Shown here: in pieces, positions 19,265-46,322 of the stretch | Numbering within the stretch: position 1 is the stretch's first letter | How the letters are laid out: every line of letters starts with the position of its first letter | Origin: an uncultured Gammaproteobacteria bacterium | GTDB taxonomy: Bacteria; Patescibacteriota; Patescibacteriia; UBA1558; S5-K13 | Direction of reading: 5' to 3' | Assembly: GCA_964486685.1 (NCBI GenBank) | Contig: CAZAOE010000001.1 | Coordinates: 12,538-76,537, forward strand | Length of the DNA stretch: 64,000 bases | Made by a program: the position numbers and the translations under genes | The notes under the pieces: model-generated | The model's input: only the letters and a program-made list of their open reading frames with translations | Databases searched by the model: none | Told to the model about the DNA's origin: nothing

Positions 19265-19341
19265 TTGTTTAGAAAGTTTTATGAAGGTTGAAAATAGTAA
19301 ATTGATTAATTAAATAATTTAAATAATTAAAAATATTAAAT

Positions 19342-29458: not shown

Positions 29459-29620
29459 GCGATACCAATATAGCGATACCAATATACGAATTTACCCTTG
29501 AACCAGAAATCGGTTCAGGGTGAATACGAATTATACTAATATACCAATCATTAGTATTTAATTAGTATATTAGTATCACAATATTAGTATTATTAGTATA
29601 GAAAGGAAGGTAAAAATAAA

Positions 29621-29839
29621 GTGGTAGAAGTTAAACAAAAAATTAATGAATCTTTTGAAAAATTAATTAGAAGATTTACTAAAAAAATAATCCAGAGCGG
29701 TAAATTATTGCAGGCCCGAAAGGTTAGATTTCAAAACGAAAGAAAAAATAAAAGAAAATTTAAGTCCGCGGCCATTTATCGTTTAAAAGCCCAAGACCAA
29801 AGAGATTACTTGAAAAAAATTGGCAAAATAGAAGAATAA
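29621..29839 (+). CDS. rpsU: 30S ribosomal protein S21
   Basis: 72 aa, basic, S21-like FEKLIRRFTKK...KRKFKSAAIYRLKA. Confidence 0.7.
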   Translation: MVEVKQKINESFEKLIRRFTKKIIQSGKLLQARKVRFQNERKNKRKFKSAAIYRLKAQDQRDYLKKIGKIEE

Positions 29840-29868
29840 GAAATAATTTTGAATTACGAATGAAAGGA

Positions 29869-29945
29869 AATATTATATTAACCCCCACCATCTCCCCCTT
29901 ACTAAGGGGGAGGGAGAGGGGGTGAATTTTAAATTTAAAATTAAT
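29869..29945. repeat. 77-bp exact repeat (copy 2) with GC-rich hairpin
   Basis: Identical to 9190-9266; lies 30 nt after rpsU. Confidence 0.7.
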
Positions 29946-29956
29946 AATTCAAAGAA

Positions 29957-30406
29957 ATGTCTTTAAAAGAGAAAATTGAAAAAGATTGTATTCAGGCCTT
30001 AAAATTAAGAAACCAGGACGAGCTGGGAGTTTTAAGATTGTTAAAAAGTGCTATTCAGAATAAAGAAATAGAAAAAAAAGCAAAATTAAAAGATGAGGAT
30101 ATTATTAAAATTTTAATGTCTGAGATAAAAAAGAGAAAGGATAGCATTGAGCAGTTTAAAAAAGGCGAACGCAATGATTTAGTATCTAAAGAAGAAAAAG
30201 AGATTAAAATCATTGACCAATATTTGCCGGAAATGAAATCTAAGGAAGAGATAAAAAAAATTATTTGTGATATAATAAAAAGAGAGAATATAGAGAGGTC
30301 TGTAAGCAATTTTGGACAACTAATGAAATTGGCTATGCAAGAATTATCTGGTCAGGCCGAAGGAAATTTTGTTTCGCAGATTGTTAAGGAAGAATTGAAT
30401 AAATGA
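29957..30406 (+). CDS. GatB/YqeY domain protein
   Basis: ~149 aa K/E-rich helical protein with a YqeY-like N-terminus (LKEKIEKDCIQALKLRNQDELGVLRLLKSAIQN). Confidence 0.65.
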   Translation: MSLKEKIEKDCIQALKLRNQDELGVLRLLKSAIQNKEIEKKAKLKDEDIIKILMSEIKKRKDSIEQFKKGERNDLVSKEEKEIKIIDQYLPEMKSKEEIKKIICDIIKRENIERSVSNFGQLMKLAMQELSGQAEGNFVSQIVKEELNK

Positions 30407-30502: not shown

Positions 30503-32188
30503 ATGTTATTAAAAGCAAAAATAAAAAATAGTTTTAACTTTTCTAAAATAACTGTTGTCAGTTTAGTTTTAATGTCAGCGGTTATTTTTTTATTACCCAG
30601 CATTTCTCAAGCCCAAATTTTAGTTCCCCAAGTAGATAATTTAAGTACGGGCAGTATTGAAGAGATAGCTGGGACTGTTATTCAATTGGTTTTGGGCTTA
30701 TTGGGCTTAATTGCTTTAGTTATTGTTTTATATGCCGGTTTTATGTGGATGACTTCTGGAGGAAATGAAGAAAAAATATCTAAGGCCAAAAAAATCTTAA
30801 GTGCTGGAGTAATTGGACTTTTAATTATTTTGGCCTCTTATGCTATCACCAGCTTTATTTTACAAGTAGCTCAAGGAGGAGGTGGCGGTGGTGGTGGACA
30901 CGGAGATTATACGGAAGGATTGGGTGGATTTGGCGGAGGAGCATTAGGCGGAGGGGTAATTGAATATCATTATCCGGCTCGAGATGCTACTAATATTCCG
31001 CGTAATACTTTAATTATGATTAGTTTTAAAGTTAGGGTTGCTACTAGTAGTGTAATAGCAGAATCTTTTACTGATAATCCGGGGCTTGGGCTTTGTAATA
31101 ATTATACAGAAAACAACACTAATGGTAATGAATGTGGAATTTTAAGTAGCGATATAGAGATAATTGATTATGGTTCTGAAAATATTCCCTTGGATCCAGA
31201 AGATGTAGTTGCTGTTTTAACTGCAGATGGAAAAAATATTTTACTTAGGCCCATAGAGTATTTAGGAAACGGAGAAAATTCTACTGATACAATTGTGTAT
31301 TTGGGAGCAGGAATGGTAACTGCTGATGGTAAGGACTTATTTGGCGGTTTAGAAAATGGATATGCTTGGCAATTTGAAGTCAGTACTTTTTTAGATCTTA
31401 CGCCTCCAACTGTTAGTTTTGTCTGGCCAGGGCAAGACCAGATAGTGGCACGTAATGCTATTATTCAAGTTAATTTTTCGGAACCCATAAATATTTTAAG
31501 CGTAGATGGAAATATTATTGTTACAAATTTACCAGATGAAATTTTAGCAGGAGAATTAAAAATTAGTAATCAGTATAAAACAATAGAATTTTTAGCTGCT
31601 GGAGACTGCGGAGGAGCAAGGGTTAATTCCTGCGGTGAAGAAATATTTTGTTTACCAGCTTTGGCAAATATTGAAACTTTAGTTGAAGCCGGAGAAGCCG
31701 ACGATCCTTTAAGTGGAATTAGTGATGCGGCTGGTAATTTATTGGCAGAAGATTATATTTGGGATTTTAATACTACTAATAATGTTTATACTATTTCTCC
31801 AATAATAGAATCTACTGGTCCAGTTAATAATGAAGAAAATGTTCAGCTGAATCCAAATATTTGGGCTTTATTTGATTTAACAGATGTCAATATTTCGCCT
31901 AGTTCTTTAAATACAGATAGTTTTTATATTTATGATGCTGATAGTTGTGTTGATTTAGGTCAAGACGATCCAGATTTAGAAGCTGGGCACAAAGAAAATA
32001 TTGCTGGAGATAATTGTTTCCCAGCTTATTCCGTTTACATGAGCGATGACAATAAGAAGTGTAATATTCAAATATATAATGCCTTAGAAAATAATATTCT
32101 TTATTATCCGCGAATTACTTCTGAAATTAAGGATTCTTATGGAAATTGTTTTAATCCAGCTGAGGGTCCAGGCGGGAGCGAGCGGTAA
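30503..32188 (+). CDS. Surface protein with VirB2/TrbC-like pilin-type N-terminal anchor domain, poly-Gly linker and Ig-like (Big) extracellular domains
   Basis: Signal peptide, then two hydrophobic helices separated by a short charged loop (VIQLVLGLLGLIALVIVLYAGFMWM - TSGGNEEKISKAKKIL - SAGVIGLLIILASYAITSFIL), which is VirB2/TrbC topology. GGGGGGGG linker follows. TPPTVSFVWPGQDQIV...VNFSEPIN is an SbsA/Big_5-like Ig domain. Confidence 0.55.
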   Translation: MLLKAKIKNSFNFSKITVVSLVLMSAVIFLLPSISQAQILVPQVDNLSTGSIEEIAGTVIQLVLGLLGLIALVIVLYAGFMWMTSGGNEEKISKAKKILSAGVIGLLIILASYAITSFILQVAQGGGGGGGGHGDYTEGLGGFGGGALGGGVIEYHYPARDATNIPRNTLIMISFKVRVATSSVIAESFTDNPGLGLCNNYTENNTNGNECGILSSDIEIIDYGSENIPLDPEDVVAVLTADGKNILLRPIEYLGNGENSTDTIVYLGAGMVTADGKDLFGGLENGYAWQFEVSTFLDLTPPTVSFVWPGQDQIVARNAIIQVNFSEPINILSVDGNIIVTNLPDEILAGELKISNQYKTIEFLAAGDCGGARVNSCGEEIFCLPALANIETLVEAGEADDPLSGISDAAGNLLAEDYIWDFNTTNNVYTISPIIESTGPVNNEENVQLNPNIWALFDLTDVNISPSSLNTDSFYIYDADSCVDLGQDDPDLEAGHKENIAGDNCFPAYSVYMSDDNKKCNIQIYNALENNILYYPRITSEIKDSYGNCFNPAEGPGGSER

Positions 32189-32204
32189 TAGTTTAATTGT
32201 TAAA

Positions 32205-32301
32205 CCCCTCACCTTTTGATTAAGAATATATTATTTTATTTTCTAATATTTTTTAAAAATAATAATGCTTAATATAATTTATTTTAGAAAAGGTGATGGG
32301 G
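32205..32301. mobile_element. MITE-like non-coding element (97 bp) with 13-bp terminal inverted repeats and a 10-bp flanking direct repeat
   Basis: TIRs cccctcacctttt ... aaaaggtgatgggg. Flanks aattgttaaa (32195-32204) and aattgttaaa (32304-32313). A second copy in inverse orientation lies at 60322-60419. Confidence 0.55.
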
Positions 32302-32340
32302 TAAATTGTTAAAATTAAGAGTAACTTGTAACTAATTATC

Positions 32341-35300
32341 ATGCTTAAGAAAAGAAAAAATTTATTTTTAATCTTTATACTATTTATAGTAATAGGTTTT
32401 GTATTACCAAATATTTCATCTGCTCAAATTTTAGTTCCACAAGTAGATAATCTTAGTACAGGTAGCATTGAAGAGATAGCTGGGACTGTTATTCAATTGG
32501 TTTTGGGCTTATTGGGCTTAATTGCTTTAGTTATTGTTTTATATGCCGGTTTTATGTGGATGACTTCTGGAGGAAATGAAGAAAAAATATCTAAGGCCAA
32601 AAAAATCTTAAGTGCCGGAGTAATTGGTCTGATTATTATTTTGGCCTCTTATGCTATAACCAGCTTTATTTTACAAGCAGCCCAAGGAGGAGGTGGCGGT
32701 GGAGGCGGTGGAGGTCAAGGATGTACTCCTAATGAATGTACGGGTTGTTATCGGTGTGATCTTGATGGTAATTCTCATTATGACGAGACTTGTCCTACCT
32801 GTGGTTCTGGTGGGGAAACATATAATTTTAGTGTAATTACTAATAGTCCTCAAGGAGAAAATATTTCTTTGTGCAGTTTAATTCAAGTTAAATTTAATAA
32901 TATTGTTGATGAAACTACAGTTAATTCTCAAAATTTTGGTTTATATGACTGTGGAGCCAATTCTTGTGCTGGCAATTTAATCAACAATTTAACGCCAGAT
33001 GGACAGTTTATAATAGAAGAAGATATAATTCAGTTTATTTTAGGAGAGGATTATGAGCAGAAGCATTATTATGCAGTTAATATCATACATGATGGGATTG
33101 CAGATGAAGACGGAGAGGCCTTGTTAGTAGATTATTATTGGGAGTTTAAAACTGGGAATGAAACAGATACAGAGCCACCTACTGTTATTTCAGTATTTCC
33201 TAAAGATGATCAAGAAGATGTTTGTTTAACTTCATATATTACCGCCGAATTTTCAGAAGATATGGATATGCTTTCTTTAAGAAATGCCTCGTCCTTTTAT
33301 TTATATGAAGACATTGACACTCTATCAGATATAGATTTTTTTCATCAGGTTTATAATGACTCCTTAATTTTATATCCTAACTCTAACTATGAAGCAGTTG
33401 AAGATTACTTCCCTTTATTAAATGGCAGTATTATTAAAGATACTTGTGGTAATTATTTAGATGGTGATGGTGATGGCACTCATCAAGATTCAGATATTGA
33501 TAATTATCCTTCAGAAGGTCCTAGTGAAGAATGGAATTTTATTACCGGAGATAATTTATATTGTACGCCAGAAATTACTGGAGTTGAAAATAATCAAACC
33601 TATTATGACGCCACAGAGAATTTAATTATTTCTGGTCATTATTTAGGGAATAATCCAGTTTTAATTTTTGATAATTCCATAGTCGTAAACCAAACAAGTA
33701 ATTTATGTATGGGAAATGAATATTGGTATGATGGCGCTTGTGTTATTTGGGCCTGGACAGAAGAAGAAATAAAAGTAGCTATACCAGTGACTGGGGGCGA
33801 TAATAACGGAGTTAGGGCCGGAGAAAATTTAGTGGAAGTGCAAACTGATGAAGGCAATGTTAGCGCTAATTTTGATTTATTAAGTCCGCGTATTAATGCT
33901 TTATATCCAGACCAAGGTGGAGTTGGACAATTTATCAGTATTTGGGGAATAAATTTTAAAGAAGATGAAAACATTAATTTAAGTGCTTCCGAGGTTTATT
34001 TTCGTTTTAATCAAGATGAATACATAGAAGCAGATTTACCTTGTGGCCAAGATGCCTGGGAAGATGAACAAATTATTATTTCTGCTCCTAATAATTTGAA
34101 TATAAATAATGTTTATGCTGTGCAAATTAAAAAAGTTTATGATGACGGTACAGAGCGCTGGAGTAATTTAGCGGATTTTTATTTTAATGATGAAGAAGCT
34201 GGACCAGGTCTATGCTCTATTGATAAGGATGAGCTTTTTTTTGAAGACGAATTTAATTTAAATGGAATTAAATTAGGGGACGATATCTTTTATAATAGAG
34301 AAGTAATTTTAGGCGATGATTATAGTTCCATACAAGCTGATGTCTTAGAGTGGACCGGAAACGATGGTGATGGACACAATACAGATGTTGAGGCCATAAC
34401 TCCCTTAATGGGTTCGGCTACAGGAGTAGGCGTTAGAGTAATGGTAGAGGAAACAGCAGGTGAACAAAGATTTAGTAATTATTTAAATGTAGAGATATTG
34501 GCAGATGAATCAACAAATTTTTATATAAATTATACTTCTCCAACCTCAACTCCAATAGGGGGCTATGTGACGATTTATGGTTCTGGGTTTGGAAATAGCC
34601 AAGATGATAAGATGGTTAAGTTTAATATAGGCGGAGATGATTGGACAGATGGAGATTTTGATTTTCCAGATGAATGTTCTACGGCTTTTTGGAGTGATGA
34701 ACAAGTAATTGTTAAAGTACCGGAAACATTTAATGGTTTTGGGTTTCCATTTTCTTCAAAAATAAAAATTATAGATTCAGCTAATTATTTAGAAACTAAT
34801 GCAGTAAATTTTGAAGTTAATAATGAAGGACTTGCTCCTTGTATTTGTAGTGTAAACCCTGAATTTGGAACAAAAGAAAATGAAATTGAAATTGCTGGTG
34901 AGTATTTTGAAGATCCCGATGATGTAGATAACTTTTACTTTAACACAATTTTTGATAACAGCGGAAATTTTATATCTGGAGATTATGCGGATTTTATTAT
35001 AGATTCAGATGAGTTAATGTTTGTAACAGTAACATCAACGCAAACTGGTTTAATTTCAGCTCGCAATATTAATGGCTATGGCAATACTTGGAATTTTGAA
35101 TATATTGAAGCAGGAGCAGACATAACAGGTGTTTGGGATTTTTATGGCTGGAATTTTACTACTTGTGCAGATTGTGAAAATCCAAGAGTGAGTAGAAAAA
35201 TATGTAATTCTAATAACGGTATATCTTTTCCTTCGCCAGAACCAGGAAGTACAGATGTACCACAAGACACTAAACAGGTTTATGCGGCTTTTGAATATCC

Positions 35301-38300
35301 TAGTAGTATGGCCTTACAGATGGACACCAATACCTTGATTACAAATAATATTAATGTTTATAAATGTGCTAGTGGAGAAAATCCAGGAGATTGTAATGCC
35401 CGTGTTTCAATTGATAATATAACAGCAACTCCTATATTTTTATTGTTTAAAACCGTTAATTCTTTAGAAGCAGATTATTGGTATAAGATAGAATTAAACA
35501 CAGACATTACCGATAATGAGGGCTCTAGTTTAATTCCTAATAATAGTGATAATAATGCTTATGAATGGTATTTTCATATAAATAAAGAGGGCGGGCAATG
35601 TGAACCAGAGCAACTAAGTATTGTTCCTGAAAATTATAGTTTGGCTTATCTGACCCCCAAATCAATTTTATATAAAGGATTTTTAATTGATGATGGTTGC
35701 TATATATGTAATGATAGTGGATATAATTATGTATGGGATAAAGATGATCCAAACGGCTTGGTTAATTTTTCAAGTCGTTCGGGTGTTAGTTCTGAAATCA
35801 GTGTTCATCTAAACCAAAATTATAAAATTGGTGATTTACAAATTAGTGCAACATCAACGGATGCTGGTGGCAACGGACAAGAATTATTTGATAAAACTAA
35901 TTTATATATTACAGCAAATTGTGCTTTATTTAATGATGATTGGTCGTCTTGTATTGATAATAATGCTCATCAGGGCTTTGCTTGTTGTTGGGATGATATT
36001 AGTAGTCAATGTGTGAATGATGGTAGCCCAATTTGTATGCGACCATTTGTAAAAGAAATTGCTTGTCAGCCCACTATCACATTAGGTTCGCCTTCCCCAG
36101 TAGCTAGTAGCACAGATGTAGTTAGTAATGCTTTAATTTATATGGAATTTGCTAAAAGCGGAACCAGCACAGTTGATATGGATTTAAACACATATACTGA
36201 TAATTTAGAAATTTATAATTGTACTGATGTTAATGGCAGTTTTGCTGATGATATTTGCGGAAATAATTTATATAATAATTTAAGTTTTAATTATGATGCC
36301 ATTCAAAGCAGTAATTCAGTAGTTTTATATAATCATAATAATTTTATTTTAAACACTTGGTATAAATTAATTGCTACAGAAAATATTCAAGATAAATATG
36401 GTAGTAGTTTACAACCCAAAGAATGGCATTTTAAAGTTGGGGCTGGTTTATGTGACCCAACTAATTTAGAAGTTTCACCAAGTAATTGGACTTTAGAAAT
36501 TGATGAGTCAAAAAAATATACTACCTATTGTTATGACGAACAATGTAATGTTTGTTTGAATAATTATACTTATGAATGGGAGGTGGCAAATCCTAGTATA
36601 GCAGAGCTTAATCCAGATCCAGGTACTAATTCTAGTGCCACTAGCACAGGAAAGGCAATTGGATTTACGCAGATTACTGCTACAACAACCATTAACGGAG
36701 AAGAAATTTCTGACTTTGGAGATTTAACAGTTACTGCTAGTATTGATAATTGTTCTAATTATGGTAGTATAACTCCTTGTAATAACAGTGGTAGTTGTTG
36801 CTGGGATGGTAGTGATTGTTTAACGGGTGTAGGTAATCCAGCTTGCGATGATGAAGAATCATGTAATGATTATGGTGATGAAACAGCGTGTAATGATAGT
36901 CATGGTAGCGATCATCCAAGTCTTAATTGTTGCTGGGCTTTGGACGGTTATTGTACAAGTAATTTATCGGTCTGTGAAATATTTTATAATTGTTCTCAAT
37001 TTAAAGAAGCACTTGATTGTGAACATAGTATAAATAATTGTTGTTGGGGAGAAGACGGTGAATGTTATGGAGACGGCTCGCCAATGTGTAGTAATTTTAA
37101 AGTAATAGAAAATTATCCAGAAGACGCAAGCACAGAGGTTTGTCCAAATACTTTAATTAGAGCCATATTTAATAAAGTTTTAGACGCTGATAGCTTAGCA
37201 GGAAACGTAAATTTATATGTTGAGGAGGGTGTAGGAAATTGGAGTAGTGTAACAACAACTCTTAATTTGTATAATAATTTTGCTGGGCAAGCAGTTTTAA
37301 AAATAATACCAGAATTTTTATTAGATAAAAATGCTGATTATAAAGTTGAATTAACTGATGGAGCAGACGGAATTAAATCAACTTATGGAAATGTTTTAAA
37401 TTGTAGTAATGGAAAATGTTCTTGGATTTTTGCAACAGCAAATACTGTATGCGAATTAAATTATATAGAAATTATAGATCCAATAGATAAGTATTATTTA
37501 TTTACCCAGCCAAATGAGGACAAAAATTTTATAGCGGAAGGAAGAGATATAAATGGAAATACGATAGTATCAATGGCAGGTTATGACTGGTCTTGGTATT
37601 GGGAATCACTTGATGAAGATTTAGTTGATTTGGGAGGCCCATATTCTGATAATGTTACTGCTACAGCTGAAAATGCTAATGGTAATACCATCGTAAGAGT
37701 AAGCGCCCTACCCATACCATCGGAATTAAGGTGTTCGCAAATTGTTAACCAAATTCAATGTGAAGGCGACTCTTGTTGTTGGTTTAATGGGGCTTGTATG
37801 GCTGATTTTACGGAATGTCAAAATACTTGTTCGGTTTTAACAACAGAAGACGATTGTTTAATTAATGATAATTGTATTTGGCAAGACAATATGTGTCATT
37901 TTGAAAACAAGTGGGATTATGATAATAAAGATGGGTATAAAAGTGGGTTAGTTTATCCGGATGAGGCAGAAGTAGAATTATTTATGTGTGAGAATATATG
38001 GCCGAATGTAGGTTCTTTTGAAGATGACGAATATCATTTTAGATTAAAATATTGTCGGGATGGAGGATTGGGTTATTTAGCAACTACCCAGGCAGAAGGT
38101 TTAATAACTACGAATGGGGACGGAAATGAATTATTAAGAGAATATATTTTTAAATATAATAACCCTGTGGCCTTGGAGCTAGAAGATATGAAAGACGAAA
38201 AAACAATTTTAGCTCAAGTAGGATTTTTAGAATTATTTGATAGTCGTTTGAGTTGGAAATTATTGGGTCGAATGTTTGGCCAGTTTATTGATTTATTTAA

Positions 38301-41157
38301 AGGAACCAGTGTTTATGCCCAAGAAAATAACAATGATATTATTGGTTTGAGAATATATCAGAACTTAAAACATTTATCACCTTTAGATTGGTATTATGAG
38401 TCAGCGCCAGTAATTAAGGGAAATCCTCAACCAATAAAAGTTGGTTCTTATAATGGTTTGCAAGATGGCCGGACAGTTTATGTGAATGTGGGTGAATTAG
38501 GTAATGATGGTAATTTATATACTAATATGTTATTAATATCTCATTCTCAGGATGTCAGTCCAGCTACTATTAATATATTTAATCAATTAATTGATAATTG
38601 GGATTTTAATATTAATATAGACGACTTAGACCAAAGAAATGAATTGGTAGATGATGTACAAAGATGGCAAGATATAAGAAGTATTGAGAAAAAATTAAAT
38701 GATTATGCTGATGGAAATAAATTTTGTGCTTATGTAACTGATCCATTAGGGGCTTCCTGTCCATCAGGTTATCATCATTTTGATATAAATGGTGATGGAG
38801 TGATTGATGATGAAGAATGTTATGATGTTTCTTCAAATGTAACTTGTAGATGGGATTCTGATTGTGAAAAGCATGAAATGGGTTTTCAGAAATGTGTGGG
38901 TGTATATCCAGAATTAAATGATGGTAGTTTTTTACAAGGTATTTCAACATCTAAATGGCCTTCTTGGGCATCTACTTTAGGTAATGATTTGGGTTCTGTT
39001 TTGCCCCATGATCCTATAAATGAATTTAATAGTTGTCCGACAGATTATGATGAACAAACTTGCTGGCATTCTGTTAATGAAGAGTTTTATTGTGCTTTTG
39101 GTTCACAAATTTACTATTATAGGGCTGATGGTAAAGAAGATTTAGATAATAGAGCTTTGGGTTTTGATTTATTTTCTGAATTTAATTCTCAAGAAAATTG
39201 GAATGGCCCATCATCATCATTAACAAATCATGCTTTAGATTTATATAATACTATTAAAATTGATAATCAAGATGTTTGTGATGATGGAGAAATTGGTATC
39301 TTATGTGGTAATGGAAGTTTGGATACTGGCGAACAATGCGATTATAGTAGTGCTAATAACACTTTAACATTATGTTCTGGTGGTTATAATGAAAGAACAG
39401 TTGGCTGTGATAGTAATTGTCAATGGCCTGATTATGTAGAATCCTATCAATGTTTAAGCTGTGGTGATGGATTGTTTAGCCCTCTTTATGAAGAATGTGA
39501 AATCGGATGGGGCGATATGATTTGTGCAGATGGCTGGAATCCACAACCCGTAAATTGTGTTGCTTGTGAATGGGACTCAGCAGTGGATCCTTGTGAATAT
39601 TGTGGTGATAATATTTGTCAAAATGGTACTAATAGTACTAATGATTATGGGGAAAATTATTCTACATGCATACAAGATTGTCATTGTCAGATTGGAGCTG
39701 ATATTGGTATTTGTCAACCAGCGTATGGTGAAAATAGTGAAGTCACTAGTCTGGGATATTGCGATGATTGTTCTTGTGGAGATGGAGTAGTTGATTCTAC
39801 AGAGGATTGTGATGATATGATTAGTATTGGTGAAGTTTGTGAAATTGATGATTATGCCGGGCATATAGATTGTATAGGTTGTGCTTGGGATGGTTGTTTA
39901 GCAGACGGAGAATGTGGGGATAATGTTGTTGATGGAAATGAACTTTGTGAAATTGGAGAAATAACTATTTGTAAGGAAGAGACAACTGGATATTTTGGTG
40001 AGAAGGCATGTCTAGCGGGTTGTTTAGCTTGGGGAAATTGTGTGGCTACAGAATGGTGTGGAGATGATATTATAAATGGCCCTGAAGGCCTTGAAGAATG
40101 TGATGATGGAATGCATTGTGAGAATGGAGATTCTTGTTTTGACAATTCTGTATGTAATGGTATTGGTGATGGACTTTGCAAGCCTCGGAATAATGATGGC
40201 TGTGATGCAAATTGCAAGATTGAACCTGTTTGCGGTGATGGTGTTAAAGAAGGAGCAGAACAATGTGATGATGGAAATACTAATGATTGTGATGGATGTA
40301 AAGGAGATTGTTTAAGAGTTGATAATGTTTGTGGTGATACAAATCTAGAATGCGAGGAAGTTTGCGATGATGGAAATACAAAAACTGAACGATGTGGAGA
40401 TGGAGAAAAAAATGATGGTGATTTTTGTAATGCTAATTGTACAGAGGGGTTTACTTTAAATGAACAATGTGATGATGAAGTTATGGGCCCAGATGATGAT
40501 ACTTATCATATTGAAGATTCAGGCGATGATGATGGAGCTTGTGTAATTGATTATATGCATTCATATTATTCATGTAAGAACAACGTATGTGGAGATGGAT
40601 ATTTAGATTTAAGCTCTGAAGAATGTGATTTTGGAGAGTATCCTGCTCCTAATGATGGATGTAATGACAGTAGTTGCGAGATTGAACCTGTTTGTGGAGA
40701 TGGCGTTCCTGGGCTAGGCGAACAATGTGATGATGGAGATGATCAAGATACAGTTTATACACTTGATCCTAATAATAATGATGGAGTTTGTGTAATTGAT
40801 TACACAAATTGGAATATTTCTTGTAAAATCAATATATGTGGTGATGGATATTTAAATCAAGTTTTTGAGAAGTGTGATGATGGAAATAGAATTTTTGGTG
40901 ATGGCTGTGATGCAGATTGTGATATTGAGCCCTGTAATGATTTAAATATAAATAATTGGGGCGCTTTTTTCTATGCGTCCAATAGTAGTGTTTGTGAGAA
41001 TTTACAAAATTGTCATTGTGTGTGGTGGGGTGAATGTTGTTGTGATTGTTTAAATAGTGGTGGGTGTAATCCCGCATTTTCTTGTAGTTGTACTGGTATT
41101 AATTGTGAGCCACCAACTTGGACTCCTAATCAATATTGTGTTTGTACTGAAAATTAA
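32341..41157 (+). CDS. Giant (2938 aa) surface protein: pilin-like N-terminal anchor, poly-Gly linker, multiple Ig-like domains and a C-terminal array of Cys-rich CGDG...CDDGN repeats
   Basis: The N-terminal ~120 aa are near-identical to the 30503 protein. Big-like domains (PPTVISVFPKDDQEDV...). Many C-terminal repeats of the 'Myxococcus cysteine-rich repeat' type (CGDGVKEGAEQCDDGNTNDCDGC, CGDGVPGLGEQCDDGD, CGDGYLNQVFEKCDDGN ...). The 8.8-kb ORF is uninterrupted. Confidence 0.7.
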   Translation: MLKKRKNLFLIFILFIVIGFVLPNISSAQILVPQVDNLSTGSIEEIAGTVIQLVLGLLGLIALVIVLYAGFMWMTSGGNEEKISKAKKILSAGVIGLIIILASYAITSFILQAAQGGGGGGGGGGQGCTPNECTGCYRCDLDGNSHYDETCPTCGSGGETYNFSVITNSPQGENISLCSLIQVKFNNIVDETTVNSQNFGLYDCGANSCAGNLINNLTPDGQFIIEEDIIQFILGEDYEQKHYYAVNIIHDGIADEDGEALLVDYYWEFKTGNETDTEPPTVISVFPKDDQEDVCLTSYITAEFSEDMDMLSLRNASSFYLYEDIDTLSDIDFFHQVYNDSLILYPNSNYEAVEDYFPLLNGSIIKDTCGNYLDGDGDGTHQDSDIDNYPSEGPSEEWNFITGDNLYCTPEITGVENNQTYYDATENLIISGHYLGNNPVLIFDNSIVVNQTSNLCMGNEYWYDGACVIWAWTEEEIKVAIPVTGGDNNGVRAGENLVEVQTDEGNVSANFDLLSPRINALYPDQGGVGQFISIWGINFKEDENINLSASEVYFRFNQDEYIEADLPCGQDAWEDEQIIISAPNNLNINNVYAVQIKKVYDDGTERWSNLADFYFNDEEAGPGLCSIDKDELFFEDEFNLNGIKLGDDIFYNREVILGDDYSSIQADVLEWTGNDGDGHNTDVEAITPLMGSATGVGVRVMVEETAGEQRFSNYLNVEILADESTNFYINYTSPTSTPIGGYVTIYGSGFGNSQDDKMVKFNIGGDDWTDGDFDFPDECSTAFWSDEQVIVKVPETFNGFGFPFSSKIKIIDSANYLETNAVNFEVNNEGLAPCICSVNPEFGTKENEIEIAGEYFEDPDDVDNFYFNTIFDNSGNFISGDYADFIIDSDELMFVTVTSTQTGLISARNINGYGNTWNFEYIEAGADITGVWDFYGWNFTTCADCENPRVSRKICNSNNGISFPSPEPGSTDVPQDTKQVYAAFEYPSSMALQMDTNTLITNNINVYKCASGENPGDCNARVSIDNITATPIFLLFKTVNSLEADYWYKIELNTDITDNEGSSLIPNNSDNNAYEWYFHINKEGGQCEPEQLSIVPENYSLAYLTPKSILYKGFLIDDGCYICNDSGYNYVWDKDDPNGLVNFSSRSGVSSEISVHLNQNYKIGDLQISATSTDAGGNGQELFDKTNLYITANCALFNDDWSSCIDNNAHQGFACCWDDISSQCVNDGSPICMRPFVKEIACQPTITLGSPSPVASSTDVVSNALIYMEFAKSGTSTVDMDLNTYTDNLEIYNCTDVNGSFADDICGNNLYNNLSFNYDAIQSSNSVVLYNHNNFILNTWYKLIATENIQDKYGSSLQPKEWHFKVGAGLCDPTNLEVSPSNWTLEIDESKKYTTYCYDEQCNVCLNNYTYEWEVANPSIAELNPDPGTNSSATSTGKAIGFTQITATTTINGEEISDFGDLTVTASIDNCSNYGSITPCNNSGSCCWDGSDCLTGVGNPACDDEESCNDYGDETACNDSHGSDHPSLNCCWALDGYCTSNLSVCEIFYNCSQFKEALDCEHSINNCCWGEDGECYGDGSPMCSNFKVIENYPEDASTEVCPNTLIRAIFNKVLDADSLAGNVNLYVEEGVGNWSSVTTTLNLYNNFAGQAVLKIIPEFLLDKNADYKVELTDGADGIKSTYGNVLNCSNGKCSWIFATANTVCELNYIEIIDPIDKYYLFTQPNEDKNFIAEGRDINGNTIVSMAGYDWSWYWESLDEDLVDLGGPYSDNVTATAENANGNTIVRVSALPIPSELRCSQIVNQIQCEGDSCCWFNGACMADFTECQNTCSVLTTEDDCLINDNCIWQDNMCHFENKWDYDNKDGYKSGLVYPDEAEVELFMCENIWPNVGSFEDDEYHFRLKYCRDGGLGYLATTQAEGLITTNGDGNELLREYIFKYNNPVALELEDMKDEKTILAQVGFLELFDSRLSWKLLGRMFGQFIDLFKGTSVYAQENNNDIIGLRIYQNLKHLSPLDWYYESAPVIKGNPQPIKVGSYNGLQDGRTVYVNVGELGNDGNLYTNMLLISHSQDVSPATINIFNQLIDNWDFNINIDDLDQRNELVDDVQRWQDIRSIEKKLNDYADGNKFCAYVTDPLGASCPSGYHHFDINGDGVIDDEECYDVSSNVTCRWDSDCEKHEMGFQKCVGVYPELNDGSFLQGISTSKWPSWASTLGNDLGSVLPHDPINEFNSCPTDYDEQTCWHSVNEEFYCAFGSQIYYYRADGKEDLDNRALGFDLFSEFNSQENWNGPSSSLTNHALDLYNTIKIDNQDVCDDGEIGILCGNGSLDTGEQCDYSSANNTLTLCSGGYNERTVGCDSNCQWPDYVESYQCLSCGDGLFSPLYEECEIGWGDMICADGWNPQPVNCVACEWDSAVDPCEYCGDNICQNGTNSTNDYGENYSTCIQDCHCQIGADIGICQPAYGENSEVTSLGYCDDCSCGDGVVDSTEDCDDMISIGEVCEIDDYAGHIDCIGCAWDGCLADGECGDNVVDGNELCEIGEITICKEETTGYFGEKACLAGCLAWGNCVATEWCGDDIINGPEGLEECDDGMHCENGDSCFDNSVCNGIGDGLCKPRNNDGCDANCKIEPVCGDGVKEGAEQCDDGNTNDCDGCKGDCLRVDNVCGDTNLECEEVCDDGNTKTERCGDGEKNDGDFCNANCTEGFTLNEQCDDEVMGPDDDTYHIEDSGDDDGACVIDYMHSYYSCKNNVCGDGYLDLSSEECDFGEYPAPNDGCNDSSCEIEPVCGDGVPGLGEQCDDGDDQDTVYTLDPNNNDGVCVIDYTNWNISCKINICGDGYLNQVFEKCDDGNRIFGDGCDADCDIEPCNDLNINNWGAFFYASNSSVCENLQNCHCVWWGECCCDCLNSGGCNPAFSCSCTGINCEPPTWTPNQYCVCTEN

Positions 41158-41352
41158 TAAGAATGAAATAATTTTGGTTTGAAAATAAAATTATAAAGAA
41201 TAATAGTGTTTATAATGATTAATTAAAATTAATGAAATAAATTGTTTTTTATATTATTAATTTATCCCCACACTTATTTCTAAGTCGTGGGGATTTATCC
41301 CCACTACCTTTTCAAGGTGTGAGGATATATGTTATAATAAAATCACTAATAA

Positions 41353-42579
41353 GTGATTTTTATGTTTGAAGATTTAGAGCCAGAAAAGGATTTTTCACAA
41401 AATAAATTGAACAATAAATTAGTTCAACCGGAAAATGAAAATATCGGCGATTTTTCACATTCTCAAAAAAATAAGTCCTATCAAGAGAAATTAAAAGATA
41501 CTCAATTTTCTGAAAATAAAAAAAATACTGAAGATATTTTTGCAGACACAGAAGGAAGTACTGCTGCTCAAAAAAATGTCAAACTTCCTAATGTTTTACC
41601 TTCTAAAGAAGGTCTTTCCCCAGTCCAGCCCTTAAAAGATTATCAGGAATTAATTACTGCTGGAGACAGTATTCAAGGAGATAAAATAAAGCCCCATTAT
41701 TTTATTTTGGGTTTGATTATTATTTTAATTTTTTTAGGTAGTTTTGGCGTTTGGGCCTATCAAAAATTATTTACGGGTGAAAATAATACTGGAAATATAA
41801 TTTTAAATACTGAGCCAGAAATTATAGATTTAGTAGAGCAAAAGGAGGAAAAAATAGTAGAAGAAGGTATTAGTGTCAATGAGCCAGCAATTCCCAATGA
41901 TATTGATGGTGATGGTCTTAGTAATGAAGAAGAAGAGGCCCTAGGCACCAACCCTAAAGACGCAGATACAGATGGTGATGGATTATCTGACCGAGAAGAA
42001 GTCAAAATTTATCATACAGAAGCGCTAGAGTGGGATACAGATGGAGACTCTTATTCTGACGGAGAAGAAGTAGCAGCGGGCTATGATCCTTTGGGCCCAG
42101 GAAGATTATTTGATTTTAGTTTGATTACCGGTGATAATTCCGCCAAAGAAAAAATTAAATCTCTAATCTATCCAGAAATAGATATATCAGAATGGAATAA
42201 TTTTAATAGTGAAAAGTTTAATTTTTCTTTTAAATATCCAAATACTTGGGAAATTCAGGAAAAAGATAATAAAGTTATTATTAATAAAGATGGTTCTAAT
42301 TTTATTGAGATTGAATTAAGAGAAAATAAATTAGAGTTAGATTTAGTTGATTGGATTGTTACCCAAAATGATTATCCAGATTTTATACAAGACCAAATAT
42401 ATGTTCATGAAAAACTCTCTCTTTTAGTTAATAGTAATGATCCGGATTGGTTGGCCCAGAGCTCTATATTTATCGGGGTTGGGGACAGAGTTTACAATTA
42501 TAATCTTTTTTCTGACGATGGTTCTGAGGAAAATTTTAATATATTTCAGGCCCTAATATTATCAACAAATTTTAAATAA
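41353..42579 (+). CDS. Single-pass membrane protein with thrombospondin-type-3-like Ca-binding repeats
   Basis: N-terminal cytoplasmic part, a TM ([22 protein letters not shown]), then [34 protein letters not shown]...[19 protein letters not shown] (DxDxDG repeats). Confidence 0.5.
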
Positions 42580-42580
42580 T

Positions 42581-44080
42581 ATGGATATTGAACAAAAAAA
42601 TATTGAAAGCGAAGACATTTTTAAAAAAACCGATTTAGAGCCGGAAAATATTCAAGTTAATAATTTAAATTCTCCCCAAAATCAATTCAATATACCCACT
42701 AAGACCCCAAATAATAATGGTTTAGAAAATAATAAAGTTATTTTTAAAGAAGCTGATGAAAAAGTATTTAATCAAGAAGAGGGGGCTTCGGAGGTTGAAG
42801 AGGGGGCTTCGGAGGTTAAAGATTCTAATATTCATAGCATGCCAGATAAATTTTTAAAACCAGAAAAAGAAAATCAAGAAAAAAATTGGTTTTTGATAAT
42901 TGGGATTGCTTTAGTTTTTGTGATTATTTTAGCGGTAGCTGGATTTGCCTTTTTTGTCTTAAGAGATAAGGATAATCCAGACGAGATATTAAATATTGAA
43001 AATAAAACAAACCAAAATGTCAATACAAACACTGATTCAGCTGATGAAAATGAGTTTAATTTAGATACAGCAAGGGGTAGAGACGAGAAACGATTAAATG
43101 ATATTTTGGACATTAAAAACGCCTTAAGTTTTTATTATCATGATCATACAGAATATCCGGCTAATTTATCATCTTTACTAGATAAATATTTGAAAGATTC
43201 TCCTAAAAATCCTCAACCCGGTGGCGAGGCCTATGATTATCAAAGACAAGAAGATGGTCAAAATTATATATTAGTTTTTAGTTTAGAATCTGGTGGCAAT
43301 TTTGGAAATTTAGTTTTAGGAGAGGGTAAATATGAATTAACATCAATAGATGGAATTCAAATTTATTCAGAAGATGAAGAAGAAGATGAAAATGAAAATA
43401 ATAATTTAGAAAATAACGAAAATAACGAAAATACAAATGTTAATAATACCAATACCAACCAGGAGCTTATAATTCCGCCCAAGGGTCCAGATAGCGATAA
43501 TGATGGTTTAACCAATGCCGAAGAAATTTTATTTGGAACAAAATTTGATTTACCAGATAGTGATTTTGATGGCTATATTGATGGTGAAGAGCTTCTTGCG
43601 CTTTATGACCCAAATACAGCTGACCAAAGATTGGCTAATAATATAGATTTAGTGCGAGTTTATAATAATGATATTTATAAATATTCAGTTTTATATCCAG
43701 CCAAATGGTTGGCCACAGAAAAAACTTCAGAATTTGATGAAACGACTTTTTATGATAATGAGAATGGGGATTTTTTTAACATTCAAGTAGAAGAAAATCC
43801 TCAGGGCCTAAGTTTGCAAAAATGGTATTTATATTTTTCCCCAGGAGCCCAAATAGGACATTTAGAATATTTTCAAAATCCTAATGTTTCTGGATTAAAA
43901 ACTAAAGATGGGTTTAATATTTATATTGCTAATGAGGATAAAATATATGTAATTTCTTATATTTTAGTTGACATAGAAGAGTTAAATTATTTTAGAACTT
44001 TTGAAATGTTAGTCCAAAGTTTTAGATTTATAAATCAACAAGCAGGAGACGAAGAAGGTGGAGGAGACGAGGAAATATAA
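42581..44080 (+). CDS. Paralogous single-pass membrane protein with TSP3-like Ca-binding repeats
   Basis: TM (WFLIIGIALVFVIILAVAGFAFFVL), then PDSDNDGLTNAEEILFGTKFDLPDSDFDGYIDGEELLALYDP. Architecture is parallel to 41353-42579. Confidence 0.5.
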   Translation: MDIEQKNIESEDIFKKTDLEPENIQVNNLNSPQNQFNIPTKTPNNNGLENNKVIFKEADEKVFNQEEGASEVEEGASEVKDSNIHSMPDKFLKPEKENQEKNWFLIIGIALVFVIILAVAGFAFFVLRDKDNPDEILNIENKTNQNVNTNTDSADENEFNLDTARGRDEKRLNDILDIKNALSFYYHDHTEYPANLSSLLDKYLKDSPKNPQPGGEAYDYQRQEDGQNYILVFSLESGGNFGNLVLGEGKYELTSIDGIQIYSEDEEEDENENNNLENNENNENTNVNNTNTNQELIIPPKGPDSDNDGLTNAEEILFGTKFDLPDSDFDGYIDGEELLALYDPNTADQRLANNIDLVRVYNNDIYKYSVLYPAKWLATEKTSEFDETTFYDNENGDFFNIQVEENPQGLSLQKWYLYFSPGAQIGHLEYFQNPNVSGLKTKDGFNIYIANEDKIYVISYILVDIEELNYFRTFEMLVQSFRFINQQAGDEEGGGDEEI

Positions 44081-44081
44081 T

Positions 44082-44519
44082 ATGAAAGATAATTTAAATT
44101 TATTGGCCAATAAAAGAATTGAATTGGATTTTAATAAGATTAGAAAATGGTTAGAAAAAAAGATTAAGGCCTTGGAAAAATTAGAAAAAATTAAAGCAGA
44201 ACAGATATCTATAGTTATTACTGATGATAAAAATATAAAATTTTTAAATCAGAAATATCGTCAACAAAATAAAATTACAGATGTTTTAAGTTTTGTTCAA
44301 TCTGATATTAAAGAAGATTTAAAAACAACCTTGGATAATTTTTTAGGAGAAATATTTATAAATTTTGAACAAGCCCAAAGACAGTCCGACAATCTTCAAG
44401 AAGAATTAATAAAATTATTAGTACATGGTTATTTGCACGCTCGAGGTTATTTGCACAAGACAGAGAAACAAAGAAAAGATATGGATGGACGAGCTAAGGA
44501 AATTATTTTAAAGTTATGA
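44082..44519 (+). CDS. ybeY: rRNA maturation endoribonuclease YbeY
   Basis: Metal-binding motif HGYLHARGYLH (H..H.....H). The ATG at 44082 with a GAGGA SD 8 nt upstream is preferred over the track's GTG at 44058, which overlaps the upstream gene. Confidence 0.7.
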   Translation: MKDNLNLLANKRIELDFNKIRKWLEKKIKALEKLEKIKAEQISIVITDDKNIKFLNQKYRQQNKITDVLSFVQSDIKEDLKTTLDNFLGEIFINFEQAQRQSDNLQEELIKLLVHGYLHARGYLHKTEKQRKDMDGRAKEIILKL

Positions 44520-44890
44520 GTTTTTTTAATATTAAAAAATTTGTGGGAAGCATAAAATTTGCTTTTCGAGGATTGAAATCTGTTTGTAAAACAGAACAGA
44601 ATTTTAGATTTCAGGTAGCAATTTCTATTCTAGTAATAATTTTAATGTTTGCTTTTCAGGTTAGTAAAAAAGAGTCCGTGGTTTTAATTTTAATGATTGC
44701 CTTTGTTTTAGTAATGGAGTTGATTAATTCTGTTTTTGAAAAAATGGCTGATATGATGCAACCTCGAGTTCATATTTATGCAGAATTAATAAAGAATATT
44801 ATGTCGGGAGTCGTTCTTATTTCCGCCCTAGCTTCTTTGATTATTGGTTTAATGATTTTTATTCCTTATTTTGAAAAATTATTCGTTTAA
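44516..44890 (+). CDS. dgkA: Diacylglycerol kinase family (DgkA/undecaprenol kinase-like)
   Basis: ~124 aa, three TM helices, conserved ELINSVFE (E..N.aiE) pattern. ybeY-dgkA synteny with a 4-nt overlap. Confidence 0.6.
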   Translation: MSFFNIKKFVGSIKFAFRGLKSVCKTEQNFRFQVAISILVIILMFAFQVSKKESVVLILMIAFVLVMELINSVFEKMADMMQPRVHIYAELIKNIMSGVVLISALASLIIGLMIFIPYFEKLFV

Positions 44891-45027
44891 GAAAGTAAAA
44901 AATCAAGGAATTAAGAAAGTAATTTGATTTTTTGTTCAATTGATTTATTGATTATTTGAGCCAATGGTTTAACAATTAATTTTATTTAATATATAATTAA
45001 TATAACAAATAAATATTATTTAAAAAT

Positions 45028-46269
45028 ATGAGCAGAACTAATATTATAACAGGTTTAGATGTAGGTTCTAATAAGATTAGAGTTGTTGTCGGCCAATATG
45101 GCGGAGAGCAAAATGCTTTGCAGATAATTGGTGCTACGGAAAGTGAGTCCCACGGTATTATTAATGGTAATATTGTGAGCATAGAAGATGTGGTAAGTTC
45201 TATATCTATTGCTTTAGAAAAAATAGAAAAAATTATAGGTCTGCCTATTAATAAAGCCGGTGTAGGAATATCAGGTTCAAAAATAAAATCCATTATTAGC
45301 CAGGGCGTGGTGGCTGTGGCTAAGGCCGACGGAGAAATTAAGGATGAAGACATAACGAGAGTAATTGAAGCCGCAGAGGCAGTGTCTACTCCGCCAAATT
45401 ATGAAATTTTACACACCGCCCCTAGAAATTATAAAGTAGATAATCAAGAGGACATTAAAGATCCCATAGGAATGAATGGGGTAAGATTAGAAGTTAATGT
45501 TCAAATTATAATGGTTTTGAGTTCGCAAATAAAAACAATTACTAAATGTATTTATAGAACGGGTGTGGAAGTAAAGGATCTTGTTTTTTCAATTTTAGCA
45601 GATGCTGAGTCGGTTTTAAACAAAGAACAAAAAGAATTAGGATGTGTGCTTGTCAATATTGGTGCCTCTACTACCGATGTAGCCATTTATGAAGAGGGAG
45701 ATTTAATGCACGCAGCTGTTTTGCCAATTGGCAGCTCACATATTACTAATGATTTAGCTATTGGTTTAAGAACATCTATAAAAGTGGCTGAACAAGTTAA
45801 GATAGAATATGCAACTTGTCTGCCGGAAATGATTAGAAAAAGAGAAGAGATTAATTTAAATACCATAGACCCCACGGAAGATAGAAAGGTTCTTGTTTCT
45901 AAATTAGAAATTGCCAAAATAACCCAAGCTAGAGTAGAAGAGATATTTGAATTAGTAGCCGAGGAATTAAAGGCCGTTGATAGATTTGGAATGTTACCGG
46001 CGGGAGTTATTTTAACTGGTGGGGGCTCTAAATTAAATGGTTTAGTTGAGCATGTTAAAAATCAATTAGAGTTGCCTGTTTTTTTAGCCAAACCAATTAA
46101 AATAAATTCTATTGTAGATAAAGTTTATGATTTGTCTTATAGTAATGCTTTGGGTTTGGTTTTATGGCAATATCATAAACAGGGCAAGTGGCCAGGTCGA
46201 AAATCAGATCAGGGCATATTTTCTACAATTATTGATTGGATAAAATCATTAATTCCTAGCAGACATTAA
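45028..46269 (+). CDS. ftsA: Cell division protein FtsA
   Basis: Actin-fold ATPase GLDVGSNKIRVVVG at the N-terminus; lies upstream of ftsZ. Confidence 0.85.
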   Translation: MSRTNIITGLDVGSNKIRVVVGQYGGEQNALQIIGATESESHGIINGNIVSIEDVVSSISIALEKIEKIIGLPINKAGVGISGSKIKSIISQGVVAVAKADGEIKDEDITRVIEAAEAVSTPPNYEILHTAPRNYKVDNQEDIKDPIGMNGVRLEVNVQIIMVLSSQIKTITKCIYRTGVEVKDLVFSILADAESVLNKEQKELGCVLVNIGASTTDVAIYEEGDLMHAAVLPIGSSHITNDLAIGLRTSIKVAEQVKIEYATCLPEMIRKREEINLNTIDPTEDRKVLVSKLEIAKITQARVEEIFELVAEELKAVDRFGMLPAGVILTGGGSKLNGLVEHVKNQLELPVFLAKPIKINSIVDKVYDLSYSNALGLVLWQYHKQGKWPGRKSDQGIFSTIIDWIKSLIPSRH

Positions 46270-46322
46270 TTTTAAAAATTATAAGATAATTTGATTTTTA
46301 ATAAATTAAATAATTAAATAAG

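Follow-up and report, generated by a model that had tools for sequence, protein, structure and literature searches.

Background

Why should a domain of the conjugative-pilin type stand at the head of two large surface proteins that are encoded among housekeeping genes, a short distance from ftsA and ftsZ? The question is raised by four consecutive genes, here called A, B, C and D, in a stretch of 64,000 nucleotides (nt) of a bacterial contig (CAZAOE010000001.1, positions 12,538 to 76,537; assembly GCA_964486685.1), which we refer to as the window and whose own numbering is used for all coordinates. We propose that these genes belong to a conserved chromosomal cell-surface module of ABY1-type Patescibacteria, in which a sequence-specific, co-assembling pilin anchor displays an immunoglobulin-like (Ig) stalk and a giant adhesin; taken as a whole, this proposal appears to us evenly poised between right and wrong.

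A large part of bacterial diversity falls within the ultra-small Patescibacteria, and a life in attachment to a host is assumed for most of them. To our knowledge, no attachment mechanism is known for Patescibacterial lineages outside Saccharibacteria. The A-B pair may be a concrete, testable candidate for the attachment device of host-dependent Patescibacteria. The window itself, with a G+C content of about 30% and a strongly positive GC skew, has the gene set of a typical reduced Patescibacteria (Candidate Phyla Radiation, CPR) genome. An earlier note on this DNA, made from its letters alone, had outlined the four open reading frames (ORFs), and all four lie exactly where it placed them.

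Results

Two surface proteins with one N-terminal module

The four genes are as follows, with lengths in amino acids (aa):

30503..32188, + strand: gene A, 561 aa; PF18895 and Big_5 matches, three Ig domains
32341..41157, + strand: gene B, 2938 aa with 164 Cys; a pilin-anchored giant surface protein with Pfam and NCBIfam matches
41353..42579, + strand: gene C, 408 aa, GTG start; TSP3_bac match of 69.4 bits
42581..44080, + strand: gene D, 499 aa; TSP3_bac match of 19.2 bits, below the cut-off

A and B open in the same order: a signal peptide and an acidic stretch of about 14 residues are followed by two hydrophobic helices, between which lies the loop TSGGNEEKISKAKK, and by a run of glycines, Gly8 in A and Gly10 in B. 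This is the common module that the earlier note had seen in both ORFs. Its parts, with helices taken from AlphaFold2 (AF2) models and confidence given as the predicted local distance difference test (pLDDT), are:

30503..30613, + strand: signal peptide of A, aa 1-37; predicted cleavage between SQA and Q, after A37; AF2 helix 11-34
30614..30874, + strand: VirB2/TrbC-type hairpin of A, aa 38-124; PF18895 at aa 49-119; AF2 helices 52-84 and 89-127, joined by the loop TSGGNEEKISKAKK
30875..30952, + strand: Gly8 run and Gly-rich flexible linker of A, aa 125-150; pLDDT <50 at aa 125-145
32341..32424, + strand: signal peptide of B, aa 1-28; predicted cleavage between SSA and Q, after A28; AF2 helix 5-27
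32425..32685, + strand: VirB2/TrbC-type hairpin of B, aa 29-115; PF18895; AF2 helices 43-75 and 80-116
32686..32715, + strand: Gly10 linker of B, aa 116-125, where a GGN tandem repeat is detected

The model of A has an overall pLDDT of 84.5, with the Gly-rich linker disordered, and that of the N-terminus of B a pLDDT of 79. The mature modules of A and B are 97% identical as proteins and share a perfectly identical tract of about 190 nt in the DNA, while their signal peptides and the sequence downstream of the module have diverged. This likeness is not due to chance.

Model PF18895 (T4SS_pilin, of the type IV secretion system or T4SS) scores 35.3 bits against the whole of A and 34.6 against the whole of B, and 37.6 and 40.1 bits against the isolated modules, in every case above its cut-off of 26.6. 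The conjugative-pilin (VirB2/TrbC) character claimed for the module in the earlier note is thereby borne out by profile hidden Markov models, PF18895 exceeding its gathering score and the TrbC model, at an E-value near 1e-5, falling just short of its own. The NCBIfam model NF045849, for the Mbov_0395 pilin-like conjugal transfer protein, reaches 30.7 and 29.7 bits, under its curated cut-off of 40. In the AF2 models, A and B have the signal peptide, two-helix hydrophobic hairpin and short basic loop TSGGNEEKISKAKK of TrbC/VirB2 proteins. They are not small pilins (mature size about 70-130 aa) encoded with virB4 and further T4SS genes, being 561 and 2938 aa long and lying in 64 kb that hold no T4SS genes.

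The nearest relatives of the isolated module are mostly stand-alone proteins of 100-230 aa, named as PF18895 proteins, 'pilin' or 'VirB2 component', all of them from Patescibacteria, and the nearest stand-alone ones are pilins of 110-160 aa located in arrays. An exhaustive search with the module collected 35,378 cluster representatives at E <= 0.001. A profile search of the pilin alignment against PDB sequences returned no pilin, only spurious matches to Pizza proteins. Homology of the module to the T4SS pilin family is supported at the level of sequence profiles and topology.

Many of the relatives numbered P0194 to P0337 carry several modules per polypeptide, two-module proteins of about 190-330 aa being common. 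Four pilin modules can be read from the sequence of P0194 (427 aa), and P0197 (1775 aa) has 17 matched stretches. Such multi-module relatives are candidate pilin polyproteins or, alternatively, gene-calling fusions of arrays.

Constraint and homogenisation of the hairpin

Across 43 orthologs of A, the hairpin is the most conserved part of the protein, with a mean pairwise identity of 51%, compared with 30-43% for the Ig domains and 26% for the signal peptide. Seven residues (G70, W73, T75, G78, A86, K87 and G96) are near-invariant in free pilins, A and B alike (alignment A2), and the loop signature of free pilins, WMTxGGNEEK..AKK, is kept in the A and B hairpins across hundreds of species. When the hairpins of 38 genomes are compared, A and B of the same genome have a median identity of 67% (range 42-97%), whereas between genomes the medians are 49% for A with A and 47.5% for A with B. 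As the A and B hairpins are closer within genomes than between them, they are not separate orthologous lineages and must have been repeatedly homogenised. With the hairpin also being better conserved than any other part of A, this concerted evolution speaks against a generic anchor and for a unit that co-assembles in a sequence-specific manner.

The generic anchor deserves a hearing all the same. On that account the hairpin is a pilin-derived two-helix membrane anchor whose pilin-type interactions have gone, and the likeness of A to B is a by-product of gene conversion between adjoining repeats. The setting of the locus amid housekeeping genes with no T4SS gene nearby would fit, as would the generic nature of the hairpin fold and the divergence of the A and B hairpins to 42-60% identity in many genomes. 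Transmembrane (TM) anchors, however, normally drift fast, yet here the anchor is the region of A that has changed least; the free-pilin loop signature would not have had to persist over so many species; and the genome-specific match to one free pilin, described below, would be left unexplained. We regard a generic anchor as distinctly improbable.

A matching free pilin in the same genomes

VirB2-like pilins and pilin arrays have been published in Patescibacteria (Wang et al. 2023, PMC10633639; Quinonero-Coronel et al. 2025, PMC12102498). The pilins are essential in Southlakia epibionticum (PMC10633639), the arrays are widespread, with 441 counted (PMC12102498), and a review names VirB2-like pilins as the only pilins in monoderm T4SSs (PMC12857230). 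In the only genetically tractable species, the T4SS is essential along with its VirB2-like pilins. The T4SS survey detected no adhesins such as PrgB (PMC12102498).

Two assemblies contain both an A-B locus and a free-pilin locus, namely GCA_964424195.1 (L009 and L089) and GCA_035356975.1 (L017 and L090). In each, a gene for a solute-binding protein is directly followed by eight PF18895 genes in an array, all of them stand-alone. In both, the A/B hairpin is closest to one array member of 131 aa, at 48-59% identity as opposed to 28-45% for the rest. The mature N-terminus is likewise common to A/B and this closest free pilin, reading HxIGYIP... in one genome and ILVPQV.NL against ITVPTVPNL in the other. 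In these two genomes, a requirement for A, B and one free pilin to fit one another would predict just this pattern. The arrays, at 8897-12720 of L088/L089 and 5458-10396 of L090, stand in a conserved series of gmk, an rluD-like gene, NTP_transferase, SBP_bac_1, the pilins, a glycosyltransferase and PGI. No VirB4-type gene occurs within 10 kb on either side of these arrays.

The same observations invite a bolder account, in which A and B are pulled from the membrane by a Patescibacterial T4SS into an extruded pilus made mainly of the cognate free pilin, where they would be tip, base or sparse decorating subunits that carry the adhesin, much as PilB and PilC do in Streptococcus sanguinis. They would then be the first 'modular VirB2 pilins', built by the T4SS into a VirB2-type pilus or used to cap or root it. 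In F-type pilins the C-terminus faces the exterior of the pilus, and peptides can be fused to it. Several results given above would suit this account, namely the retention of the invariant free-pilin residues in A and B, the stronger conservation of the hairpin than of the ectodomains, the resemblance to one array pilin of the same genome, N-terminal segment included, and the presence of the eight-gene arrays in the same genomes. So would the published facts that the arrays are essential and T4SS-linked in Southlakia epibionticum, that a PrgB-type adhesin has yet to be detected for Patescibacterial T4SSs (PMC10633639, PMC12102498) and that adhesin modules grafted on pilins are established for type IV pili (PMC8179133). 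Against it, a C-terminal load of 2,800 residues is impossible on every subunit, which leaves only a sparse, tip or base position, and no T4SS gene is found in the window or within 10 kb of the arrays. Moreover, no Patescibacterial VirB2-type pilus has been visualised so far, the review speaking of a 'potential to elaborate conjugative pili' (PMC12857230), and the thin filaments solved in one CPR bacterium are the unrelated Pam pili (bioRxiv 10.64898/2026.03.03.709456). Although its geometry is plausible, incorporation into a T4SS pilus is in our opinion rather unlikely.

A locus with a fixed chromosomal place

More than 150 full-length homologs of A with the same architecture, PF18895 plus PF13205 (Big_5), were returned by a word-indexed search. 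At least 370 species-representative genomes encode a relative of A, a count that is a lower bound, being made on one genome per species with a single peptide pattern. The order lepB-hisS-rpsU-yqeY, A-B-(C-D), ybeY-dgkA-ftsA-ftsZ recurs in about 80 species-level genomes, and among 83 non-duplicate loci the size and architecture of A are nearly constant. Record titles, where informative, name Komeili-, Falkow-, Uhr-, Buchanan- and Magasanikbacteria and the 'Parcubacteria group', and include the isolate BM507. The five named groups we take to be members of GTDB class ABY1.

Upstream of A, at least two of lepB, hisS and yqeY are present in 55 of the 63 loci in which this could be tested. Downstream, a second pilin module starts less than 400 nt past the stop codon of A in 71/75 loci, with a median gap of 4 nt, and homologs of C and D follow a complete B in 16 of 21. 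The gene neighbourhood outlined in the earlier note is therefore conserved in relatives. Complete B orthologs range from 1668 to 3452 aa (median 2773). Wherever a locus extends far enough, ybeY, dgkA, ftsA and ftsZ follow, with the same order in L005, L027, L034, L073 and L083.

Dozens of metagenome-assembled genomes with this locus are titled 'uncultured Gammaproteobacteria bacterium' (binchicken, SRP co-assembly isolates), and these titles look like mislabels.

The ectodomains of A and B

Beyond its linker, A consists of Ig domains:

30953..32170, + strand: three tandem Ig-like beta-sandwich domains of A, at about aa 151-296, 297-428 and 429-556; Big_5 at 71.6 bits, and AF2

Residues 151-550 are modelled with pLDDT values of about 83-97. 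Foldseek places the ectodomain nearest to the Ig domains of LdtMt2 (E 6e-10), of the S-layer proteins SbsC and Sap, and of titin, and no enzyme or catalytic fold is among the matches. The SbsA/Big-like Ig domains that the earlier note had ascribed to the extracellular regions are recovered as Big_5 in A and B and as TIG in B.

Such domains raise the prospect that A and B are not host adhesins at all; instead, they would be an S-layer, an S-layer anchor or a spacer, possibly positioned relative to the division machinery. Big_5 denotes Ig domains of the SbsA type, and SbsC and Sap turn up among the fold matches of A. The near-constancy of A over 83 loci would be natural in an envelope scaffold, as would a core-genomic place beside ftsA-ftsZ, co-packed with ybeY-dgkA. 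The matches to LdtMt2 and titin are, however, equally strong, the Pfam and NCBIfam scans find no SLH or other known S-layer anchoring domain, and the variable distal end of B described next (vWA, Cys-rich repeats, LVIVD) looks like diversifying ligand recognition and not like a lattice. A purely structural role in the envelope seems improbable to us.

After Gly10, B continues with a small Cys knot, Big_5, TIG and Big_2-like domains, five 'CCW' Cys modules, an un-annotated region and an array of CGDG...E.CDDGN repeats. Three regions stand out:

33883..35040, + strand: IPT/TIG-like region, B aa ~515-900; TIG matches; tblastn coverage in 57-68 of 71 loci over aa ~530-880
37948..39210, + strand: conserved segment, B aa ~1870-2290; tblastn coverage in ~34-50 of 71 loci; no Pfam family
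39238..40950, + strand: Cys-rich acidic repeat array, B aa ~2300-2870; TIGR02232, DUF4215 and motif map

In tblastn searches of 71 related loci, the first two of these (aa ~515-900 and ~1870-2290) are the segments of B conserved among distant orthologs. The second has the motif RD..R..D...I...LE.Y ... YP.L..G.Y...S.S.WPSW, with an inserted EF-hand-like Ca loop (consensus of alignment A4). Pfam and PDB searches with this segment gave nothing significant, the matches to MotY and mitrocomin being marginal, and a word-indexed search with aa 1865-2300 gave one match.

The Cys-rich C-terminal repeats reported in the earlier note pass the cut-offs of two models, TIGR02232 (myxo_disulf_rpt; 35.1 bits over three stretches, cut-off 20.8) and DUF4215 (27.4-33.4 bits, cut-off 27). 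The CGDG...CDDG units span aa 2313-2870, with nine CGD[GN] motifs at aa 2374-2833. The 164 Cys of B, like its Ca-binding motifs, are all found beyond helix 2.

The distal end of B differs among orthologs, with a VWA domain in P0213, CarboxypepD_reg in P0238 and LVIVD in L006. P0213 is a close ortholog of 3023 aa whose hairpin is 72% identical; its VWA domain occupies aa 2690-2852 and scores 43.6 bits. A conserved proximal stalk with a variable tip, as these sequences suggest, would be the usual layout of an adhesin. The known ways of fixing such a protein to the surface were considered for A and B. Pfam and NCBIfam scans of B find no LPXTG, Gram_pos_anchor or RTX, its C-terminus being Cys-rich and ending in ...YCVCTEN, and anchoring of A or B by sortase, by RTX and a type I secretion system (T1SS) or by SLH domains is rejected, such domains being absent from both scans.

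Contigs often stop inside B, as at the ends of L003 and L004, and contigs of 524 kb and 62 kb both end about 3.6-3.9 kb into the gene, which points to repeats or strain variation in B as a cause of broken assemblies.

The two genes that follow

C and D each have a long N-terminal tail, one TM helix and an extracellular part. In C, which would be a single-pass membrane protein with its N-terminus inside, the TM helix is at about aa 116-136 and is followed by three thrombospondin type-3 (TSP3) repeats at aa 181-247 and a C-terminal domain common to D; a match to PsbP_2 is weak (E 0.004). In D, the TM helix (about aa 103-127) is followed by an acidic/Asn-rich linker, a TSP3-like repeat at about aa 300-344 and the C-terminal domain common to C. 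With PF18884 (TSP3_bac, cut-off 25), C scores 69.4 bits over three stretches and passes, while D reaches 19.2 bits and does not. The two proteins align with an E-value of 2e-11 over the TSP3 region and the next domain, so that they are paralogous in their C-terminal halves only. The earlier note had called them two paralogous single-pass TSP3 proteins, which holds for the TSP3 repeats of C but only below threshold for those of D, and the paralogy must be narrowed to the C-terminal halves.

The sole PDB sequence matches of D aa ~167-230 (42971-43480) are to the pseudopilins GspG/EpsG of the type II secretion system, and these are weak (E 0.005-0.43). D is without a prepilin-type N-terminus. The RD..R..D...I...LE.Y...YP motif in the core of B (38608-39240, aa ~2100-2300) aligns to the GspG-like segment of D with an hhalign probability of 68% over 30 columns. 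The locus may thus carry pseudopilin-like head domains outside any pilin context. D also contains in-frame tandem repeats at 42776-42822 and 43370-43433, a 21-nt unit present 2.2 times and encoding EEGASEV. Its acidic/Asn-rich linker is encoded by runs of GAAGAT and GAAAATAAC, and the repeats could be variable in length.

Neighbouring genes and the rest of the window

The genes on either side of the locus are:

27444..28070, + strand: lepB, signal peptidase I; Peptidase_S26 at 147 bits
28073-29458, + strand: hisS, Pfam match; start of the upstream flank 28073..30406
29621-29839, + strand: rpsU-like basic ORF of 72 aa; its L006 homolog is annotated Ribosomal_S21
29957-30406, + strand: yqeY, Pfam match
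41287..41304, + strand: terminator-like hairpin in the gap between B and C; weak, from a consensus scan only
44058..47510, + strand: downstream flank with ybeY, dgkA, ftsA and ftsZ, Pfam matches, packed tightly against D

LepB, whose gene stands upstream of A in most related loci, would be the presumptive enzyme for cleavage of the A and B signal peptides. The ybeY-dgkA-ftsA-ftsZ series that the earlier note had read after the four genes is upheld by the Pfam matches, and nrdR also belongs to this downstream housekeeping flank. D starts 2 nt after the stop codon of C, and overlaps follow of 23 nt between D and ybeY and of 4 nt between ybeY and dgkA. In a scan for promoters and terminators, sites in the region were no commoner than in shuffled sequence.

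Two adjoining ORFs at 23151-24236 and 24238-25266 were considered as a T4SS coupling protein and rejected; with FtsK alpha and gamma domains, they are read as FtsK. The first carries part of an FtsK_SpoIIIE ATPase segment with FtsK_alpha behind it, and the second the motor and gamma domains; the pair may represent one gene that was split or frameshifted, or else a partial duplication. Between a P-type ATPase gene and FtsK, the stretch 17390-22497 encodes an NYN-domain protein, a Fic/DOC protein with a helix-turn-helix and a 1051-aa type ISP restriction-modification enzyme. It is likely a variable, defence-type stretch, and L001 and L003 have other genes at the matching place upstream of lepB. 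On the opposite strand, 48943-49650 (-) encodes a protein of 235 aa with two Lipoprotein_Ltp repeats (host cell surface-exposed lipoprotein), adjoining an ORF like HSDR_N/MmeI_N. The Lipoprotein_Ltp domain is known from phage superinfection-exclusion proteins. The gene radA/sms is at 56216-57559, with no flanking T4SS gene in the window; T4SS loci of ABY1 commonly occur together with radA, recG and comF (PMC12102498).

Discussion

A proposed co-assembling anchor with a long adhesive arm

The arrangement we propose begins with export of A and B by Sec, after which signal peptidase I would cut them. The hairpin of the VirB2/TrbC family would then hold both proteins in the cytoplasmic membrane with the acidic N-terminus outside, the Lys-rich loop inside and the C-terminus outside. 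This topology agrees with the positive-inside rule, given the net-positive loop TSGGNEEKISKAKK and the acidic mature N-terminus, and with the position of the Cys-rich and Ca-binding domains after helix 2. The poly-Gly run would act as a hinge, and everything beyond it would be extracellular. A would supply a short stalk of three Ig domains, and B a very long, disulfide-rich Ig/IPT stalk with a conserved core domain and a lineage-variable distal end. In this arrangement the hairpin would be a working pilin unit and not a passive anchor, its sequence being matched between A, B and probably one cognate free pilin, and through it A and B would co-assemble into one surface fibre or complex that adheres by way of the distal end of B. 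C and D would be membrane partners with Ca-binding repeats, co-transcribed with ybeY-dgkA. The earlier note had favoured a membrane anchor or oligomerisation stalk; that reading fits, and the conservation of the hairpin and the concerted evolution of A and B now sharpen it.

A number of points weigh against this proposal. No VirB4-, VirB6- or VirD4-type gene occurs anywhere in the 64-kb window, just as the earlier note had found no canonical T4SS ATPases beside the pilin-like domain. Model PF04956 (TrbC/VirB2), although covering profile positions 5-97/98, gives the isolated modules 25.8 bits (E 1.2e-5), under its cut-off of 27.9. The hairpin fold is not diagnostic of a pilin, a fold search with it matching more than 1,000 unrelated PDB chains. 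In 25/38 genomes the A hairpin of some other genome is closer to A than is the B of the same genome, so homogenisation must be episodic, and gene conversion alone can homogenise adjacent direct repeats with no functional need. The pattern of a cognate free pilin comes from two genomes only. C and D are not downstream of B in 5 of 21 loci. A role in the envelope or an S-layer would be just as compatible with the Big_5 domains and with the fold matches to SbsC and Sap. Finally, host attachment by A and B is suggested by their domain content only, and the proposal as a whole is built on sequence comparison and predicted models.

Should the bolder account of A and B as modular VirB2 pilins prove true, they would supply the host-recognition function reported missing in surveys of Patescibacterial T4SSs, and A-B-C-D beside ftsA-ftsZ would be a class-wide, core-genome attachment organelle of ABY1 Patescibacteria. 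With the A-B pair, the 'modular pilin' principle, known from type IV pili, would reach T4SS pilins as well. Host range could be marked by the variable distal end of B.

Comparison with known systems

The Pam pili are CPR-specific surface filaments composed of Ig-like domains, and they are implicated in host contact (bioRxiv 10.64898/2026.03.03.709456). Unlike A and B, Pam pilins have an incomplete Ig fold that is completed on assembly by donor-strand exchange, with PapD-like chaperones encoded in the operon; their signal peptide is a plain one, they lack a TM hairpin, and they are found for the most part in Saccharimonadia and Microgenomatia. No chaperone-like gene is present in the locus, and the Ig domains of A are predicted to be complete. 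Pam pili are therefore rejected as an explanation, having another assembly principle, other taxa and no relation to PF18895.

With giant adhesins of the Bap, RTX and SiiE types and with sortase-anchored MSCRAMMs (microbial surface components recognizing adhesive matrix molecules), B shares a long Ig-like array, Ca-binding motifs and a variable, ligand-binding distal end. It differs from them in its N-terminal pilin-hairpin anchor, and Pfam gives no LPXTG, RTX or T1SS signal.

The type IV pilins PilB (vWA) and PilC (lectin) of Streptococcus sanguinis follow the same principle of an N-terminal pilin joined to a C-terminal adhesive module (PMC8179133, PMC9934059), and a vWA module is found in one ortholog of B, as in PilB. 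They nevertheless belong to another, unrelated superfamily of pilins: the signal peptide is of class III, the N-terminus has one helix only, type IV pilus machinery is involved and the modules are far smaller. Incorporation of PilB and PilC into pili has been shown experimentally, whereas A and B are known here from genes and models.

In TrbC, VirB2 and TraA (PF04956), as in A and B, a signal peptide that can be cleaved precedes two hydrophobic helices with a short basic loop, and the TrbC match has an E-value of 1e-5. A and B depart from them in the sub-cut-off score, in a huge C-terminal extension and in having neither an evident cyclisation or acetylation context nor adjacent T4SS genes. 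The Patescibacterial PF18895 pilins share with A and B the Pfam family, the phylum, the signal peptide and hairpin, and the WMTxGGNEEK loop. The published ones are about 100-200 aa long, have a mean identity of 25% within an array and are often near virB4, whereas A and B carry ectodomains of 430 and 2,800 residues, resemble each other and occupy a fixed housekeeping context with no T4SS genes.

In the literature searched, no description of a pilin-ectodomain fusion or of this locus was found. The judgement of the earlier note that this is not a classically described system accordingly stands as regards papers, but automatic database names, among them 'type IV secretion system pilin/Big-like domain-containing protein' and 'TrbC/VirB2 family protein' (958 aa), already show the architecture. 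A metatranscriptome supplement likewise lists PF18895 genes of 1230 and 1458 nt in uncommented rows. Set against these systems, the locus is a joining of a known pilin family and known adhesin domains in an undescribed fusion that is conserved class-wide and whose pilin modules evolve in concert.

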